DNA of 64,000 bases, taken from positions 128,001 through 192,000 of IMG/VR virus record IMGVR_UViG_3300028048_000038. One strand, given 5' to 3'. A program made the translations under genes and the position numbers. This DNA is from a virus. Its lineage: Duplodnaviria; Caudoviricetes. The notes under the pieces were generated by a model that was not told the origin of the DNA, did not search any database, and saw only the letters and a list, made by a program, of their open reading frames with translations. Of the stretch, positions 8,263 through 50,316 are shown piece after piece. Position 1 is the first letter of the stretch. Each line of letters starts with the position of its first letter.

Positions 8263-8577
8263 ATTTCCTTGTTTTTAAATTTCTGATGTAAAGATACGAA
8301 AAAAAGTTGAACCAACCAAATGATTAATTCAACTTTAACACTCATTAACCTTACACTTGTTCTCGGCTCTATTCACCTTGTTGTAAAAGTTAATCCTTTT
8401 CAACTTAATAGTAAATTAGATTTACCTGTATCAACCATGAAGGTATCCTCTTAACCATCAAGGAACTAGGGCAAGGGACTAATCCTTGCACCGCATTACT
8501 GCTTCATCTGCCATTTCTTACATGGCTTGCGCTTGTCTAACCTATTTCAGTATTTCAATGAATACACCAAGCCGTAG

Positions 8578-8653
8578 TGAGCATAGTAGGATTCGAACCC
8601 ACGCCTTTTACGGTCCTAGAAGCCGTTGCAATCGACCACTCTGCCATATGCCC
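8578..8653 (-). tRNA. tRNA with CUA anticodon (candidate amber suppressor)
   Basis: GGGCATA/TATGCTC acceptor, ACGGC TTCTAGG ACCGT anticodon arm, canonical T arm. Confidence 0.65.
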
Positions 8654-20162: not shown

Positions 20163-20444
20163 TTAATCTTCAATTTTTATCCATTTCAATTTATCTGAAG
20201 TTACAACACTTTCACAACCATCATAATCTCTAATAAAATATGTATCGCTTTCAATTTCTTTAATAATAGGTCTTCCATGTTTATCTTCTGCCTCAAGACC
20301 TAATTCTTCAACACATTCGACCAACTTATTATCATGCCTAGTTTTAGGATGCTCTAAATTATGTTTTTTAAACCATTCTTTTACTGGTTCCGTCCATATA
20401 GAGCCACCAAATTTTGTATTGATAACTACTTTATGCTTCATCAT
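20163..20444 (-). CDS. hypothetical phage protein
   Basis: Likely start MMKHKVVIN; GG, RHD, YDG.E motifs. Confidence 0.6.
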   Translation of the reverse strand: MMKHKVVINTKFGGSIWTEPVKEWFKKHNLEHPKTRHDNKLVECVEELGLEAEDKHGRPIIKEIESDTYFIRDYDGCESVVTSDKLKWIKIED

Positions 20445-20462
20445 TTTCAATTTTATAAAATG

Positions 20463-20586
20463 CGGTGACGTGTGGACTCGAACCACAGACCAACGGATTA
20501 ACAATCGACATTCATAATCTGCTGTGGGTTACGCACACGAGGTAACACGTGAATTTACGCTGCTCTACCAACTGAGCTACGTCACC
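20463..20586 (-). tRNA. tRNA-Asn (GUU) interrupted at 29/30 by a 51-nt ACAGCA-stem insertion (20507-20557)
   Basis: Canonical acceptor, D and T arms; removal gives GCGGA TTGTTAA TCCGT; insert has GTTAC/GTAAC-CC-ACAGCAG. Confidence 0.8.
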
Positions 20587-20595
20587 ATGTAAAAA

Positions 20596-20727
20596 GGGTA
20601 CATAAAACCAACATTTCAACCCCTCCAGTTTATTTAATTCTCTTTGCGGAGGGGGTGGGAATCGAACCCACGTTACACAAATTGACAGTCTGTTTGAAGT
20701 GTAAATTTATACTTGCTGTGTGTACCC
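20596..20727 (-). ncRNA. circularly permuted tRNA-Asp(GUC)-like RNA clamped by ACAGCA stem (D arm lost)
   Basis: GGGTAC-AC-ACAGCAA, ACAGA CTGTCAA TTTGT, T arm, CCCCTCC-G, linker, GGAGGGG, GTACCC. Confidence 0.75.
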
Positions 20728-20862
20728 ACTATTAAAATCCAAAGTAACCTTCCCTGATATCGAACCTTTGGCACACCATTACAGACTGATGTGTTCTGTT
20801 CTAGATTCCTCACCATACAAAATTACGTCTGTACGTCTATTATATGATTTCTCCTAGCATCG

Positions 20863-20945
20863 AGCTGGGGACAGGATTCGAACCTGCGAGGGCTTTCGCC
20901 TTTGGGTTACAAAGCCAACCTATTCAACCACTCTAGCACCCCAGC
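20863..20945 (-). tRNA. tRNA-Thr (UGU) with long variable arm
   Basis: G1:C72 and C2:G71, loop TTTGTAA, V arm GGC GAAA GCC; a Tyr (GUA) reading is less well positioned. Confidence 0.7.
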
Positions 20946-21112
20946 GATTATTTCTTTTTTTTCTTTTTCTTTGACTTATAACCAATATTCAATAATTCCT
21001 TGTCTAAGTCAGACAGCACATATAAGCTGTTCTTCAACTTGGACTTGATAATCTTGTGGTTAAAATCCACAATATCTATTTTATTCTGTTTACGTTTCAT
21101 ATATTCTTTTTG

Positions 21113-24151: not shown

Positions 24152-24224
24152 AATAAAATACTCTTTATTATAAATATAACAAAAATCTTTAAATTAACAA
24201 TAGATGTTAATCATTTTTTTTTTG

Positions 24225-24296
24225 CTGGAACGGAGAATTTCGAAATCTCGACCCCTTGTTTAACAGACAAGCGCTCTGCCTCTGAGCTACGTTCCA
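24225..24296 (-). tRNA. tRNA-Asn (GUU)
   Basis: CTTGT CTGTTAA ACAAG; G73. Confidence 0.88.
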
Positions 24297-24757: not shown

Positions 24758-24834
24758 CAGCCCCAATGGGATTCGAACCCACCTGGTTGAACACTGTGAC
24801 AGAGTGACGGACACACCTAGCATCCCCTGAGGCT
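24758..24834 (-). tRNA. tRNA-Asp (GUC)
   Basis: loop CTGTCAC, G73. Confidence 0.8.
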
Positions 24835-24852
24835 ATTTTGAAAATTTATACG

Positions 24853-24925
24853 TGGAGGTTCGTGCTGCTGCCGCACGTCCTGATGATTTTCAGTCATCCG
24901 CTTCTACTGAGTTAGCTTAACCTCC
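24853..24925 (-). tRNA. tRNA-Phe (GAA) with non-canonical T loop
   Basis: GATGA CTGAAAA TCATC; T loop GGCAGCA. Confidence 0.75.
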
Positions 24926-24936
24926 GAATATATGGA

Positions 24937-25275
24937 TTACGCAAATATGTAATCCCTTATTTTATCGAGTAATGACTCTTTTTCTTCTTTTTTATCTTCT
25001 GTGTCTTCATCCTTGAAACCGAAGTTCCTAAGAAACTCTCTAAAGTCGTTTTCTTCCTCTACAAACTTCTTATTTACCTCAACTGTGCTTCCACTAGTCT
25101 TGTCCTCTACAAGTTCCTCTACGACCTCGAAATGAAGCATGAAGTCCTCTGACTTAACACCTACTGAATCAACAATCCAATAGTTTGCATTCACCATATT
25201 AGCAAGGTATGTCTCTCCCTCTCTGAATGTGAGGCCGTGACCTTCAAACCTCTCTATACATACTGCTACTTTCAT
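24937..25275 (-). CDS. hypothetical protein
   Basis: Likely start MKVAV downstream of promoter near 25294. Confidence 0.6.
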   Translation of the reverse strand: MKVAVCIERFEGHGLTFREGETYLANMVNANYWIVDSVGVKSEDFMLHFEVVEELVEDKTSGSTVEVNKKFVEEENDFREFLRNFGFKDEDTEDKKEEKESLLDKIRDYIFA

Positions 25276-25354
25276 TTCGAACACAATTTTTTGCAAAGAT
25301 ACTAAAATTTTTCTTATAATCCAAACTTATTGGGTTAAGAAAAGTTAAGCACAC

Positions 25355-25398
25355 AAAAAAAAGCTGCTAAAGACTTTCTTGGAGTTCTTCAACAGCTT
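25355..25398 (-). terminator. intrinsic terminator
   Basis: AAGCTGTTGAAGA...TCTTTAGCAGCTT followed by a U run on the minus strand. Confidence 0.7.
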
Positions 25399-25752
25399 GG
25401 GAAATATATAGTGAAGTAAGTGCCTAGATTTTCTTACATCTTATATTTCAGTATAACCGCATAGCTGTTGCTTGACCCCTGTATCAAAATTAGATACAAT
25501 GGCATCATTCCACTTACTTGATGTAAATGAACTAGCATTGGCTTTGACGATATTTTTAACTACTGTAATCATAATATAAAATGTATTGATTTTTTTCTAT
25601 AATTATATACTTAATTTTAAAAAGTTTCGTTTTTGACGAATTTTTTTGGTATTTTTTCTTATTTTTTTAGTTTCTTACTTCATTATAAGCTTCTAACATT
25701 GCAAAGATATAGATAATTTTTGAGAATTCCAAATTTTTTGAGAACTTTTTTT

Positions 25753-26115
25753 TCATTCACTTAAAGCAGCTTCCCATTCAGCTTTCATCATTTCCTCATA
25801 AGCATCTGCTTCATCATCTTCGCAATCACTGTCTGTAATTACAGATAAATGTTTGATGGTTTTCTTAGTGCCATGTTTAATTGCATATAAATCATGGATA
25901 CCCCTTAACTTGATTCTTCTATTACAAGTATATCCATCGACTGTTCCACTAACCCAACAATCTACTCCGAAAGCATTGGTGAAACAAAACTTAACTTTAT
26001 CGCCCTCAATAGCTTCATACTCGTTAGTATTTTTATTGAACAACTTACCATCTTTTACAACTAAACATTGCTCAAATACATTGAGAATAAGTTTCTTATT
26101 TATCTCTATAACCAT
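25753..26115 (-). CDS. hypothetical protein
   Basis: 120-aa ORF. Confidence 0.6.
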   Translation of the reverse strand: MVIEINKKLILNVFEQCLVVKDGKLFNKNTNEYEAIEGDKVKFCFTNAFGVDCWVSGTVDGYTCNRRIKLRGIHDLYAIKHGTKKTIKHLSVITDSDCEDDEADAYEEMMKAEWEAALSE

Positions 26116-26542: not shown

Positions 26543-26693
26543 AGGAACGGTCAATTTATTGTCATGACTAGACATTCGCTCCGAAGAGCATAGATAAGTG
26601 CCTCGCAATTATGATTTAGTGCTTCGCTTATCCTCATTTACGAATCTAATTAACAAAATGCTTTTAAATAAGTAAATGCTGCTGTACGTTCCT
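26543..26693 (-). ncRNA. 151-nt ACAGCA-stem RNA with non-tRNA cargo
   Basis: 5' AGGAAC-GT-ACAGCAG ... 3' GTTCCT. Confidence 0.6.
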
Positions 26694-26868
26694 ACTGATG
26701 CAGCTAGGCGCAACTGGGCATCCTAGATACATATTTTTGACCTCAACTTAACCATAATCCCCACGAGTTAACATCGGAAACTCATAGTGTGGAGATAAGC
26801 AAGAATCGAACACTGCTTTGTTGAATTTACCTAATCTCGGTCACTGAAGCGGACTCGAACCGCATTCG

Positions 26869-41409: not shown

Positions 41410-42768
41410 TCATCTTCTCTTGTCCTCTGCTGCCTTGATGTTCATCTTTGGCTTCATGAAGAACTTGATGTCAACTGTTGGCTCAATGAGTTTCACAATC
41501 TCATCCATTGGCTTGTATGCAGCTGGAGCCTCATCCAATGTTTTCTCGTCAGCAGTGGTGGTATAGATACCAGCATCTGCCATCTGCTTCTTGAACTCCT
41601 CAACATCCAAGGTCTTGTTAGCCTTATCACGAGACATAGAACGTCCACAGCCATGCGGGGCTGTCCAGTTCCAATCCTCGTTTGACTTACCTTCACAGAT
41701 TGAGATACCATCCCTCATATTGAATGGGATAATTAACTTCTCTCCCTCATAGGCACGAATAGCACCCTTACGAATCATCATATTTGGCTTTCCACTCAAC
41801 GCCTTAAAGTCATAATCGATGTAATTATGAGTAGTGGCAATAAAGTCAATTGGCTTGCCACCATCTGACATCTTACGATAAATTTCAACCAACTGCTCGT
41901 GGATAACCTCGTGGTTCAACTTGGCATATACTTGAGCAATCAAGACATCGACAAGATAACCCATAAGTTTGTCACCGTTCAAGTATCCTGGAATCTTACG
42001 TGATAAGTACTCCTCTCTTGCTGCATCAATCTCTGCCTTAATCTTCTTTCTATCAGTATTCTTCTCCTTGACCTTATCCTCAAGCATCTTCATTTCCTCT
42101 CTAGAAACTACCATGCTTCTTGCTATCTTATCCCAATAGTTGAATACAGCCAAGCCCAACTTACGTGAGCCACAGTGTACGCACATGCAGTACTTACCAA
42201 GGTCATCATTAACATCGTACTCCACAAAATGATTACCACCACCCACAGAGCCAATAGACTTCATGAAATCACCATAAGGAATGTGTACATGTTTACACCA
42301 ATTCTCTAAATCCATTTCTGAGTTGAAATAGATTGCATAGTCCACAAACTTAGGATAAAGTGAAACCAATCTATCCATAGCTGAATTAATAGCCTTTGCA
42401 ATTCGCTTCCAATCAATCTTGGACTTGTCATTGATGGTGAATCCAAACGGAATATCCTTGCGAATCTTGTGCTCAAACTCCTTCATCTTATCCTCGACAA
42501 TAGGCTTGTCGAAGAAAGTGGCAGAGATTGTACAACCAATGTCACAACCTACATGCTCAGGATTAACGTGGTCTGTTTCAATGTTAACTGGGCATGAGAA
42601 TCCAATCACAATGCCCTTACCATCGTGACAATCAGGCATGATACGAATCTTTCTATCCTTAAATGCCCTACAATCAGCAATCCTATATATCGTTGACAAT
42701 GCGGTCTCCTCCACATTGTCGGTAAAGACCTTTATGTACTTACAATACTGTCCTTTAATTTCTAACAT
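41410..42768 (-). CDS. rtcB: RtcB-family RNA 2',3'-cyclic phosphate/5'-OH ligase
   Basis: MPDCH, VGCDIGC, GGGNHFVE, HCGSR, HNY, RKGA, PHGCGR, DEAP.AYK. Confidence 0.95.
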   Translation of the reverse strand: MLEIKGQYCKYIKVFTDNVEETALSTIYRIADCRAFKDRKIRIMPDCHDGKGIVIGFSCPVNIETDHVNPEHVGCDIGCTISATFFDKPIVEDKMKEFEHKIRKDIPFGFTINDKSKIDWKRIAKAINSAMDRLVSLYPKFVDYAIYFNSEMDLENWCKHVHIPYGDFMKSIGSVGGGNHFVEYDVNDDLGKYCMCVHCGSRKLGLAVFNYWDKIARSMVVSREEMKMLEDKVKEKNTDRKKIKAEIDAAREEYLSRKIPGYLNGDKLMGYLVDVLIAQVYAKLNHEVIHEQLVEIYRKMSDGGKPIDFIATTHNYIDYDFKALSGKPNMMIRKGAIRAYEGEKLIIPFNMRDGISICEGKSNEDWNWTAPHGCGRSMSRDKANKTLDVEEFKKQMADAGIYTTTADEKTLDEAPAAYKPMDEIVKLIEPTVDIKFFMKPKMNIKAAEDKRR

Positions 42769-48642: not shown

Positions 48643-50316
48643 TTAAATATTAATGTAGTTCAAAATCTCTTGGCTAAGAGCCTTTTCAACTAGCTCTTCG
48701 GCAGTCATCTGACGCACCTCACCTGTTTTCTCGTCAATCACTTTAGTATCTCCCATCAGCATTGTGATGATTGAAGGGTCAAAGCCAGAAAGGAATGTAC
48801 ATCCTGGTTCTATCGACTTACCCTCAAAGTGAGTAACACCATGCCTTGAAGCTACATCCCACCAAATGAATTTCATGTTATTCACGAACTCCTCTGGGAA
48901 CACTGTCTTCAATGACCTTACTGAGTACTCATAGTTGGTTGGCTCAGTACGTCTTGAGTACCATCCTCCAGTTGGGTTAAACTCCATATCACTTACAACC
49001 AATATACTTGTACAATACTGCTCAAGTGGAATCTCAGGGTGTTCCTTTCTAATCTTAATAATCTCGTCAACCGCAGATTGGAAGTTAGTACCACCGCAAC
49101 CCACGCTTGGAAGATTCATTATTCTATCGCAGAATGAATCACCCTTCATGTCATAAGGTGTTGACACATTATCGAACATGATGACCTTGTTATGGAATGG
49201 ACCAGTGTTAAGGTCAGCAAAGAACAGTGCAAGAGAACTTGCAACATCTGAACAGTAAATATCCTTTAAGCCAGTAACTGGCTGGTTCATACTTCCACTA
49301 GTATCAAGGCAACACCATACATTCTCAGTAATTCTACCGCCATCACGTGCCTTGTCTACAAGACCCTTAAACTGTGCATCAAGGGTGTGCTTAACCTCTA
49401 GAGGAATTGTCATAGAACCTCTACGATATCCACGTGAACCACGTGCCTCACGAAGACGTTTTGCAAGCTCGAAGACATAACCAGTGAATTTTGCTACTGG
49501 CTGCTGCATAATCCACTCTGTGTAGTTATCCTTCAAACCGTGATTTGAAAGGAACTTACTTGTTACAAGGAGGTTAAGAGCACGACCTGGAATGTGATTC
49601 CAATTCAAATCCTTATAGTTACGAGAACAAATCAACTTTTGGAAGTCGTGTGCTCTACCGCTTGACTTCATCTTATTGTACTCCTTATAGGTAATACCCA
49701 TCTGATTAGCAAATGCCTTTGCCAAATCATTAGTGATGGTAGTCCACTCAGTTTTGCACTTGCTCTGTGACTTGATACGAGGCATATACTTCTTAATCAA
49801 GTCAACATGTGTGTCACAAAGCAAACCTTGTGCAATAACCTCAAAGAGTGCCTTTTGATTTAAGCACTTGATGTTATCCTTGATGTCGTAGTACATGAGT
49901 GTCCACAAGTCCTTCCAAGAACCAACAAGAGGCAATGCCCAAATGTTCTTGTAGAATGCGTCCTTTTGCTCTTGAGCAATCCAAAGCAAACGCTTGAATG
50001 ACTCGTCACGAGCACCTTGACCATTCTGAACCTTATCAGTCTCATTATCGGCATTCACCTTAACCTTGCGTGTAACCATACGAAGGTAGAATGGGAAACG
50101 AAGAGCTGCACTTGGATTCTCAGCCCAAATTGTAGCTTGGTCAGCAAATACTTCTGCTAGTGTACGTCCTCTGAAGTTACCAGCCTTACCGAATTGGTCA
50201 ACAATGGCACTACCGCTAGAAATAAGAGTTTTTGCCCCGTTTTCGGTAGTTGTAAAACTCTCGAATCCCACTGCATCAATAAATGCGTTTGTCTTTGTTG
50301 CTGTTTTTGTATTCAT
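48643..50316 (-). CDS. TROVE-like/vWA protein (DUF2828-like, Ro60-related architecture)
   Basis: TENGA N-terminus, G.G.R, GSWKDL, helical region, then MIDAS CLDTSGSM, GTNF, VSDMEF. Confidence 0.75.
   Translation of the reverse strand: MNTKTATKTNAFIDAVGFESFTTTENGAKTLISSGSAIVDQFGKAGNFRGRTLAEVFADQATIWAENPSAALRFPFYLRMVTRKVKVNADNETDKVQNGQGARDESFKRLLWIAQEQKDAFYKNIWALPLVGSWKDLWTLMYYDIKDNIKCLNQKALFEVIAQGLLCDTHVDLIKKYMPRIKSQSKCKTEWTTITNDLAKAFANQMGITYKEYNKMKSSGRAHDFQKLICSRNYKDLNWNHIPGRALNLLVTSKFLSNHGLKDNYTEWIMQQPVAKFTGYVFELAKRLREARGSRGYRRGSMTIPLEVKHTLDAQFKGLVDKARDGGRITENVWCCLDTSGSMNQPVTGLKDIYCSDVASSLALFFADLNTGPFHNKVIMFDNVSTPYDMKGDSFCDRIMNLPSVGCGGTNFQSAVDEIIKIRKEHPEIPLEQYCTSILVVSDMEFNPTGGWYSRRTEPTNYEYSVRSLKTVFPEEFVNNMKFIWWDVASRHGVTHFEGKSIEPGCTFLSGFDPSIITMLMGDTKVIDEKTGEVRQMTAEELVEKALSQEILNYINI

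Follow-up and report, generated by a model that had tools for sequence, protein, structure and literature searches.

An interrupted tRNA-Asn gene of a giant rumen phage as a candidate Y-RNA-like particle RNA with a whole tRNA as cargo

Why would a phage carry a tRNA gene whose anticodon stem is split by an insert of 51 nt? The question is raised by a tRNA-Asn(GUU) gene at positions 20463 to 20586, minus strand, of a 64,000-nt window of giant rumen phage DNA (bases 128001–192000 of the complete 409,537-bp virus record IMGVR_UViG_3300028048_000038, which has inverted terminal repeats and a G+C content of 35%). Coordinates below are those of the window unless stated otherwise. The phage encodes a transfer-messenger RNA (tmRNA), which points to a bacterial host. 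The answer that we think probable is that the gene specifies a Y-RNA-like particle RNA, in which a whole tRNA is the cargo and the insert forms a handle that docks a Ro60-shaped protein of the same phage.

The 124-nt gene joins a class-I tRNA body to the handle insert, as judged from the Rfam tRNA model, the sequence itself and 11 orthologs. The Rfam model (RF00005) matches it end to end (model positions 1–71, 47 bits; gathering score 29), so that it belongs to the cloverleaf family with the insert counted as a local insertion; its anticodon arm is 62 nt long where the model expects 11. ARAGORN did not call a gene at 20463–20586. The first 29 nucleotides of the tRNA (20558–20586) comprise the acceptor 5′ strand, the D arm (GCTC/GAGC) and GCG, which begins the anticodon stem as nucleotides 27–29. 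Nucleotides 30–73 (20463–20506) comprise GA, the loop TTGTTAA with the anticodon GTT at 20500–20502, TCCGT, the variable loop, the T arm, the acceptor 3′ strand and G73, and the acceptor strands pair as GGTGACG/CGTCACC. Between the two parts, the insert (20507–20557) reads UAA, the 5′ strand of a helix P1 (AUUCA, 20550–20554), CGU, the hairpin P2, CC, ACAGCAG, AUUA, the 3′ strand of P1 (UGAAU, 20510–20514) and GUC. P2 (20528–20546), whose pairing is borne out by covariation, consists of GTTAC, a 9-nt loop (CTCGTGTGC) and GTAAC; the conserved box ACAGCAG (20519–20525) stands two nucleotides past it. The initial annotation had described just such a gene, with a 51-nt insert after nucleotide 29, a GTTAC/GTAAC stem and NN-ACAGCAG, and both the Rfam match and our own reading of the sequence agree with it.

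When the insert is deleted, what remains is a canonical 73-nt tRNA-Asn(GUU) with G73, a 5-bp stem (GCGGA/TCCGT) and the canonical Asn loop, and the join of the exons would read GAGCAGCG followed directly by GATTGTTAATCC. The junction was placed by stem complementarity, and in the window copy its position at 29/30 is unambiguous. A scan of deletions with ARAGORN, tried as an objective means of placing the insert, proved too permissive, as hundreds of deletions yielded some tRNA call. Identical copies of the rejoined string of D stem and anticodon arm, 22 nt, are found in 11 unrelated phage contigs within plain tRNA-Asn genes, which argues that the interrupted gene descends from a genuine tRNA-Asn; none of those 11 genes has its acceptor or T arm. 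An ordinary decoder copy is also at hand. This uninterrupted tRNA-Asn(GUU), called by both ARAGORN and Rfam (24224–24296, minus strand, 58.3 bits), had been pointed out before, together with the conclusion that the interrupted copy is dispensable for decoding, and it is real.

To follow the gene through relatives, we took as orthologs all sequences with an exact match to its T arm and acceptor strand: one close relative among the viral contigs and 10 metagenome contigs. Together with the window copy these make up an alignment (A3) of 12 sequences, several of which may stand for few independent lineages. All 12 carry the insert, and no insert-less allele was found among the orthologs from the viral and metagenome contigs. 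ACAGCA is invariant in the 12 sequences, with A or G as the seventh base. One pair of P2 changes from A-U to G-C in three distinct sequences, and every P2 cell remains paired. P1 pairing is kept in the relatives as well, either as ATCA/TGAT, by the matched loss of one base per strand, or as AATCA/TGATT. In the split anticodon stem, all five pairs change on both sides and stay paired, nucleotides 27–29 covarying with 41–43. The junction lies at 29/30 except perhaps in one subgroup (‘CTA’), where either nucleotide 29 is mismatched or the junction is at 28/29. The initial annotation had taken the recurrence of the module at one structural position as an argument against random decay. These comparisons support that argument: the insert and its motif persist, hairpin and split stem covary, and no scatter of insertion points was seen beyond the possible 28/29 of the one subgroup.

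The variable columns of A3 are distributed very unevenly. None is found in the acceptor with nucleotide 73 (0 of 15) or in the T arm (0 of 17), and two in the D arm (of 17), so that acceptor, D arm, T arm and connectors together vary at 2 of 52 columns. The insert is split in this respect: P2 (3 of 19 columns) and the two linking nucleotides with ACAGCAR (2 of 9) vary little and the linkers a great deal (16 of 27), evidence that selection acts on the insert. The anticodon stem (8 of 10) and loop (3 of 7) are variable, and even the anticodon differs: seven sequences have GTT, four GTC and one GCT. The Asp-type GTC is found in L164, L165, L168 and L170 and the GCT in L166 (alignment columns 93–99), on tRNA bodies that are identical; L166 differs from L163 by one base, which lies in the anticodon. 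Among plain tRNA orthologs of this phage and two relatives we counted 113 differences, 4 of them in anticodon loops and 1 in an anticodon. Thus the selective regime of the Asn gene is the opposite of a decoder's, with the top half and the handle frozen and the anticodon arm drifting.

Is tRNA-Asn the only gene affected? A search of the tRNA region for tRNA halves (T arm, matching acceptor strand and D arm) identified three over-long genes, all on the minus strand: tRNA-Asn, tRNA-Gly(UCC) with a 64-nt handle insert at 29/30 (2691–2826) and tRNA-His(GUG) with a 49-nt insert (genome positions 124729–124847, 3.2 kb before the window). Each is opened after nucleotide 29, and in each a hairpin is followed, 2–3 nt on, by ACAGCAG; the three inserts are otherwise mutually unlike. 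By itself ACAGCAG is not enriched in the window (8 matches versus 6.1 expected). Its significance comes from its context: all three inserts have it at the same structural site, each past a hairpin, and the 11 orthologs keep it. The tRNA-His(GUG) has A73 and, at position −1, a U that could pair with it, in place of the G-1:C73 of bacteria.

Two pattern scans of viral contigs found the same module at 29/30 in tRNAs of at least five unrelated phages. Interrupted genes were seen for Thr(GGU) in L023, Lys(UUU) in L099, Met(CAU) in a group of eight contigs (L101, L140–L148, L153) and Pro(UGG) in L018, the last with an ambiguous junction (29/30 or 31/32). A further tRNA-shaped gene, in L134, has kept the top half and the handle and lacks a canonical anticodon arm. 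The Rfam tRNA model spans the L018 gene at 36.6 bits and the L134 gene at 41.1 bits. The handle-bearing tRNA of L134 and of L181:2564–2684 (G009) retains nucleotides 27–29/41–43 and the top half, without a canonical anticodon stem-loop. P1 is present in the Asn, His and permuted-Thr genes; its absence from L023 and weakness in L099 rule it out as a general or core feature of the inserts. In the complete phages G001, G002 and G009, the redundancy of handle-tRNAs with plain tRNAs gives a mixed picture. A first pattern search of the viral contigs, for ACAGCAG ... GATTGTTAATCC, returned 15 matches, all of them chance occurrences in coding DNA, and was discarded.

The module is also found on RNAs that lack a tRNA body. 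About 12 small RNAs on the minus strand of the tRNA region start with one strand of a helix, continue after about 2 nt with ACAGCAA, and end in the complementary strand. This terminal-stem form and the hairpin form seen within tRNAs are exact circular permutations of one design, and the GTTAC/GTAAC-CC-ACAGCAG of the Asn gene falls within the definition of the family (a covarying helix of 5–9 bp, 0–4 nt and ACAGCA(A/G)). A loose search for terminal stems of at least 7 bp gave many chance matches in this AT-rich genome and was not used for counting. One such RNA (20596–20727, minus strand) neighbors the Asn gene, 9 nt upstream of it, and is conserved in L135 and L136. It begins with GGGTACA-C-ACAGCAAG and an extra arm; then come a T arm, an acceptor stem that a 20-nt loop closes, a weak D-like arm and TGTACCC. 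It is a YrlA-like permuted tRNA look-alike, whose topology accounts for weak YrlA and permuted-tmRNA matches in Rfam. Another handle RNA (26543–26700, minus strand; AGGAACG-T-ACAGCAG ... CGTTCCT), also conserved in L135 and L136, has a cargo that is not obviously tRNA-like.

In other phages, handle RNAs lie next to a gene of the DUF7788 family. Tandem arrays of terminal-stem RNAs, much of their cargo unrelated to tRNA, are located directly upstream of this gene and on its strand in L160, L158, L156, L159 and L157, and in smaller phages the distance is 500 nt or less. At L160:565–970 (G046), a head-to-tail series of five handle RNAs, 40–110 nt long and with cargo unrelated to tRNA, stops 3 nt short of the start codon of DUF7788. 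These sequences show that the handle module is not tRNA-specific. Rfam 15 contains no family covering the handle RNAs. We found no published account of such a family in the literature searched, nor anything relevant there on DUF2828/DUF7788 or on permuted or interrupted tRNAs of phages.

The phage of the window encodes a protein of this type, of 557 aa (48643–50316, minus strand), which we propose as the partner of the handle. Its gene is on the strand of the Asn gene, 28 kb away. The protein matches Pfam DUF7788 at 63 bits and DUF2828 below threshold at 25.9 bits, and its vWA domain has the metal-ion-dependent adhesion site (MIDAS) DTSGSM, of which D338, S340, G341, S342 and M343 are invariant in the protein alignment (A2). 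We compared 18 records, classed as handle-bearing before any protein search, with 30 other tRNA-bearing phage records taken from the same pattern scan. DUF7788 was found in 14 of the 18 handle-bearing records and 1 of the 30 controls (Fisher P = 8e-8). The four handle-bearing records without it are small fragments or doubtful cases, and the single positive control (G046) has the five handle RNAs beside the gene.

An AlphaFold2 model of the protein, built from an 18-sequence alignment (predicted local distance difference test score (pLDDT) 74; predicted template-modelling score (pTM) 0.73), was compared with the PDB by Foldseek. The top 13 matches are all full-length Ro60/TROVE proteins, aligned over ∼560 columns (E from 7.6e-9 to 1e-4; TM-scores of 0.41–0.57), and include Ro60 of Thermus phage phiLo, Xenopus Ro60, human Ro60 and Deinococcus Rsr; the matches after these cover the vWA domain only. 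The DUF2828/DUF7788 protein is accordingly predicted to adopt a Ro60-like fold, with a helical-repeat ring and a C-terminal vWA domain containing a MIDAS, and it is only by this comparison of folds that it is linked to Ro60.

A second gene of interest encodes an RtcB RNA ligase (41410–42768, minus strand; Pfam RtcB, 191 bits), a possible functional associate. Its linkage to the handle is looser than that of DUF7788: RtcB was found in 4 of the 18 handle-bearing records versus 1 of the 30 controls (P = 0.06), and G001 and G009, both complete and handle-bearing, lack it. In G002 (the contig of L023 and L158), the region from ∼24.7 to 31.1 kb contains RtcB, 16 tRNAs, the DUF7788 gene, four handle RNAs, the interrupted Thr among them, and further tRNAs. 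The RtcB match there comes in two pieces (24760–25557 and 25615–25863), which suggests an interruption or a frameshift.

How might such an RNA work? As a particle RNA, the Asn locus would yield one stable chimeric transcript of ∼124 nt in which the insert is retained. The handle, P2 with ACAGCAR, would dock the ring of the DUF2828/DUF7788-vWA protein. The tRNA part, that is, the intact top half of acceptor, D and T arms plus the anticodon stem-loop, would serve as the effector module, showing a tRNA shape to RNase P or Z, the CCA enzyme, a synthetase, RtcB or a host anticodon nuclease. Because its 3′ strand is unbroken, the 5-bp anticodon stem could stay coaxial, the handle branching off at 29/30 in structured form. 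The drift of the anticodon while the body is frozen may stem from interaction with anticodon-reading factors.

The closest known system is that of Ro60/Rsr with YrlA. YrlA Y RNAs of bacteria and phages are tRNA mimics in which the Ro60-binding module extends from the anticodon-stem position via short unpaired linkers, and the gene for Ro60 is found no more than 4 kb away on the strand that encodes them (PMC4201824; bioRxiv 10.1101/312249). The YrlA of M. smegmatis is even a substrate of RNase P and has CCA added to it (Chen et al. 2014, PMC4201824; Wang et al. 2018, bioRxiv 10.1101/312249), and some jumbo phages have been noted to encode Ro/TROVE proteins together with a tRNA-like partner (PMC7824862). 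Like YrlA (RF02553), the Asn gene has two modules, a protein-binding helix with a short box and a tRNA shape, joined through unpaired linkers at the anticodon-stem position. Its T, D and acceptor parts are conserved, as are those of YrlA, with 0 of 17 variable columns in the T arm and 2 of 17 in the D arm. In both cases the genes are linked to a protein with the Ro60 fold (TROVE plus vWA) and sometimes to RtcB, and both occur in phages. The differences are also clear. The partner here fails the Pfam TROVE model and is Ro60-like by fold alone. The topology of the Asn gene is that of a normal tRNA, its acceptor end free and its 7-nt anticodon loop canonical, and its handle is a side branch past the third pair of the anticodon stem, whereas in YrlA the stem is replaced. 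The Rfam YrlA model gave a sole match, a hybrid across two genes at 21.8 bits versus a threshold of 69.

A more distant likeness is to the Dictyostelid Class I RNAs (RF01414), for which the known binder is the RRM (RNA-recognition motif) protein Rnp1A (Kjellin et al. 2021, PMC7919456). These RNAs share with the handle RNAs a short covarying stem that joins the ends, a conserved unpaired motif right past its 5′ strand, a variable remainder and a 3′ end in CUG. The Rfam consensus of RF01414 reads CCUUACAGCAAU, which contains ACAGCAA; CUUACAGCAA is also within the consensus. It is the only Rfam family found on the phage handle array of L160, where one of the five RNAs gives a weak match (model positions 1–56; 15.3 bits versus 41.5; E = 5.3), and the model has no match on the Asn gene, where the hairpin form is circularly permuted. 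Unlike the phage RNAs, the family is eukaryotic and has no tRNA cargo. The resemblance is limited to motif and layout.

Several observations weigh against a particle RNA. The proposed three-way-junction fold has a predicted energy of −21.4 kcal/mol versus −40.2 kcal/mol for the minimum free energy fold, in which the insert pairs with parts of the exons; we rejected the latter as the native structure because its pairings are not conserved in the orthologs. The motif ACAGCA(A/G) differs from GNCGAAN0-1G, the Ro60 motif of YrlA (PMC4201824). Pfam TROVE (PF05731) has no match in the phage genome, phmmer found no match to the protein in the PDB at E up to 1, and the structure model is of moderate quality (pLDDT 74; TM-scores of 0.41–0.57). 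The association of 14 of 18 handle-bearing records with DUF7788 depends on a class assigned by eye and by regular expression, and many of the records are fragments. The remaining points concern the tRNA. Removal of the insert gives a perfect tRNA-Asn arm, with 22 nt identical to plain phage genes; nine well-parsed interrupted tRNAs (Asn, Gly, His, Thr, Lys, Met and Pro) all have a 7-nt loop, U33 and a purine at 37; and neither a canonical loop nor maintained pairing of the split stem is obviously needed by a pure protein adaptor. The sole tRNA-His(GUG) of the phage is of the interrupted form. Finally, the phage has its own gene for RtcB, which is the ligase in protein-catalysed tRNA splicing.

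The tRNA-related points, including the exact restoration of the arm, the canonical loops, the compensatory changes in both halves of the split stem and the existence of tRNA-His in interrupted form only, are also the case for the strongest alternative, a new kind of protein-spliced tRNA intron. An endonuclease of phage or host would cut at 29/30, guided by handle and tRNA body, and RtcB would join the ends to give tRNA-Asn (tRNA-Asp in relatives). The terminal-stem and permuted relatives could be circularized and then opened at the acceptor end, with the Ro60-like protein as chaperone or platform. The whole would be a bacterial-virus analogue of the intron-containing, split and permuted tRNA genes of archaea. 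We consider this unlikely. In its favor, the site is constant at 29/30 in unrelated phages. Against it, the CTA subgroup would need a junction at 28/29, and nothing serves as a fixed ruler, since ACAGCAR stands 4–21 nt from the 3′ junction and the helix 8–15 nt from the 5′ junction. The junctions (...CAGCG/TAAATT and ...AATGTC/GATT, slash at the junction) show no bulge-helix-bulge (BHB) in either register, and the same is true of the L163 group. The splicing endonuclease domain tRNA_int_endo (PF01974) has no match in the complete 409.5-kb genome, in a search that was positive in four archaeal control genomes. RtcB is encoded here, and that of G002 is separated by ∼4 kb from the handle RNAs and the gene for DUF7788; however, G001 and G009 are complete, bear handles and do without it. 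The hairpin and terminal-stem types are circularly permuted, as are archaeal introns and permuted tRNAs, yet the handle is found on RNAs with no tRNA parts at all.

Two more features of the orthologs speak against splicing. The insert is more constrained than the anticodon arm that splicing would restore. The spliced product of the GCT variant could be charged neither by seryl-tRNA synthetase, as it has no long variable arm, nor by asparaginyl-tRNA synthetase, an argument that follows from established identity rules. We also know of no nuclease activity in Ro60-type proteins.

A broader form of the idea strikes us as even more doubtful, namely that a bacterial-virus system of tRNA splicing and permutation recognizes its substrates by helix-ACAGCA, the interrupted, permuted and split-looking tRNA genes of these phages being cut at the module and rejoined by RtcB, with the Ro60-like ring as a possible platform. 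Were it true, the system would produce working tRNAs, for example the phage's only tRNA-His, would be convergent with archaeal BHB/EndA/RtcB splicing, and would perhaps hide tRNAs from host anticodon nucleases until they are needed. Splicing here would be, to our knowledge, the first protein-dependent tRNA splicing system of the bacterial world.

The known systems to be compared on this side are those of archaeal and algal tRNAs, where the BHB consists of two 3-nt bulges containing the splice sites with a 4-bp helix between them, and where EndA and RtcB act (review, PMC4090602). The phage shares with their non-canonical introns and split or permuted tRNAs a non-canonical site in the anticodon stem, a module present both in tRNAs and at the termini of permuted genes, and an RtcB gene. 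It differs from them in having no BHB, no EndA domain and a bacterial host, in a module that is conserved in sequence and is also carried by non-tRNA RNAs, and in that splicing here is hypothetical. Group I introns of bacterial and phage tRNA genes likewise interrupt a tRNA gene in a bacterial or phage setting, but they are at least 200 nt long, sit in the anticodon loop and have a P1–P9 core, unlike the 51-nt insert in the stem of the Asn gene, on which the Rfam intron families have no match at E up to 1. The initial annotation had implied an intron or a tRNA-targeting insertion module, and neither is the best fit. We prefer a particle RNA because the helix-NN-ACAGCA(A/G) module closes many non-tRNA RNAs and travels with the gene for the Ro60-shaped protein, and because BHB, splicing endonuclease and ribozyme were not found.

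Could the insert instead be a small mobile DNA element, or its scar, that targets tRNA genes and leaves them as decaying pseudogenes? It is true that plain copies of tRNA-Asn and tRNA-Gly(UCC) exist and that the tRNA arrays are highly dynamic. At the position syntenic to the Asn-handle gene of this phage and of L136, the 412-kb relative L135 has a plain tRNA-Met (L135:9144–9216), which means that close relatives exchange members of the array. Nevertheless, the three inserts of this phage have in common only the hairpin shape and ACAGCAG and thus are not recent copies of one another. All 12 orthologs keep the insert, with an invariant top half and handle and with compensatory changes, the mark of purifying selection, and an insert-less allele did not turn up among them. 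The flanks share only YG/G (slash at the insertion site), too little for a DNA target; together with the common structural position this speaks for a constraint at the RNA level. We therefore give this explanation very little weight.

Least probable of all is a small self-cleaving ribozyme or degenerate self-splicing intron, for although a conserved single-stranded box does stand beside a helix and RtcB can join the ends left by small ribozymes, no ribozyme or intron family of Rfam 15 matches 20400–21000 at E up to 1, 51 nt are too short for a group I core or for two cleavage sites, group I tRNA introns occupy the anticodon loop and not the stem, and the box occurs in RNAs where cleavage has no evident purpose.

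The Asn gene is part of a minus-strand array that, by ARAGORN and Rfam, includes in the window more than 40 tRNA genes, the tmRNA and a suppressor-type tRNA with the anticodon CUA (8577–8653, minus strand). Under the standard code, long open reading frames (ORFs) cover 72% of the genome, and TAG terminates 43 of 314 long ORFs despite the CUA tRNA. A tRNA-Thr(UGU) of the array (20862–20945, minus strand) has a 12-nt hairpin in its variable region, resembling a class-II arm, and further tRNAs (Lys, Arg, Pro, Met) are also 82–84 nt long. BLAST of the region against the phage database returned ordinary tRNA similarities only.

Ro60/Y-RNA particles are conserved from bacteria to humans, and the role of their RNA effector modules is largely open. 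The Asn gene belongs to a large phage family in which a different handle and a divergent Ro60-shaped protein go together with a range of cargo, from plain hairpins through scrambled pieces of tRNA to a whole tRNA. A whole, otherwise canonical tRNA with a free acceptor end would be a ready probe of what such a particle does with tRNAs, whether they are charged, cut, repaired or held out as bait. That the anticodon changes fast and the body stays frozen is a hint of a conflict with anticodon-reading factors of the host.

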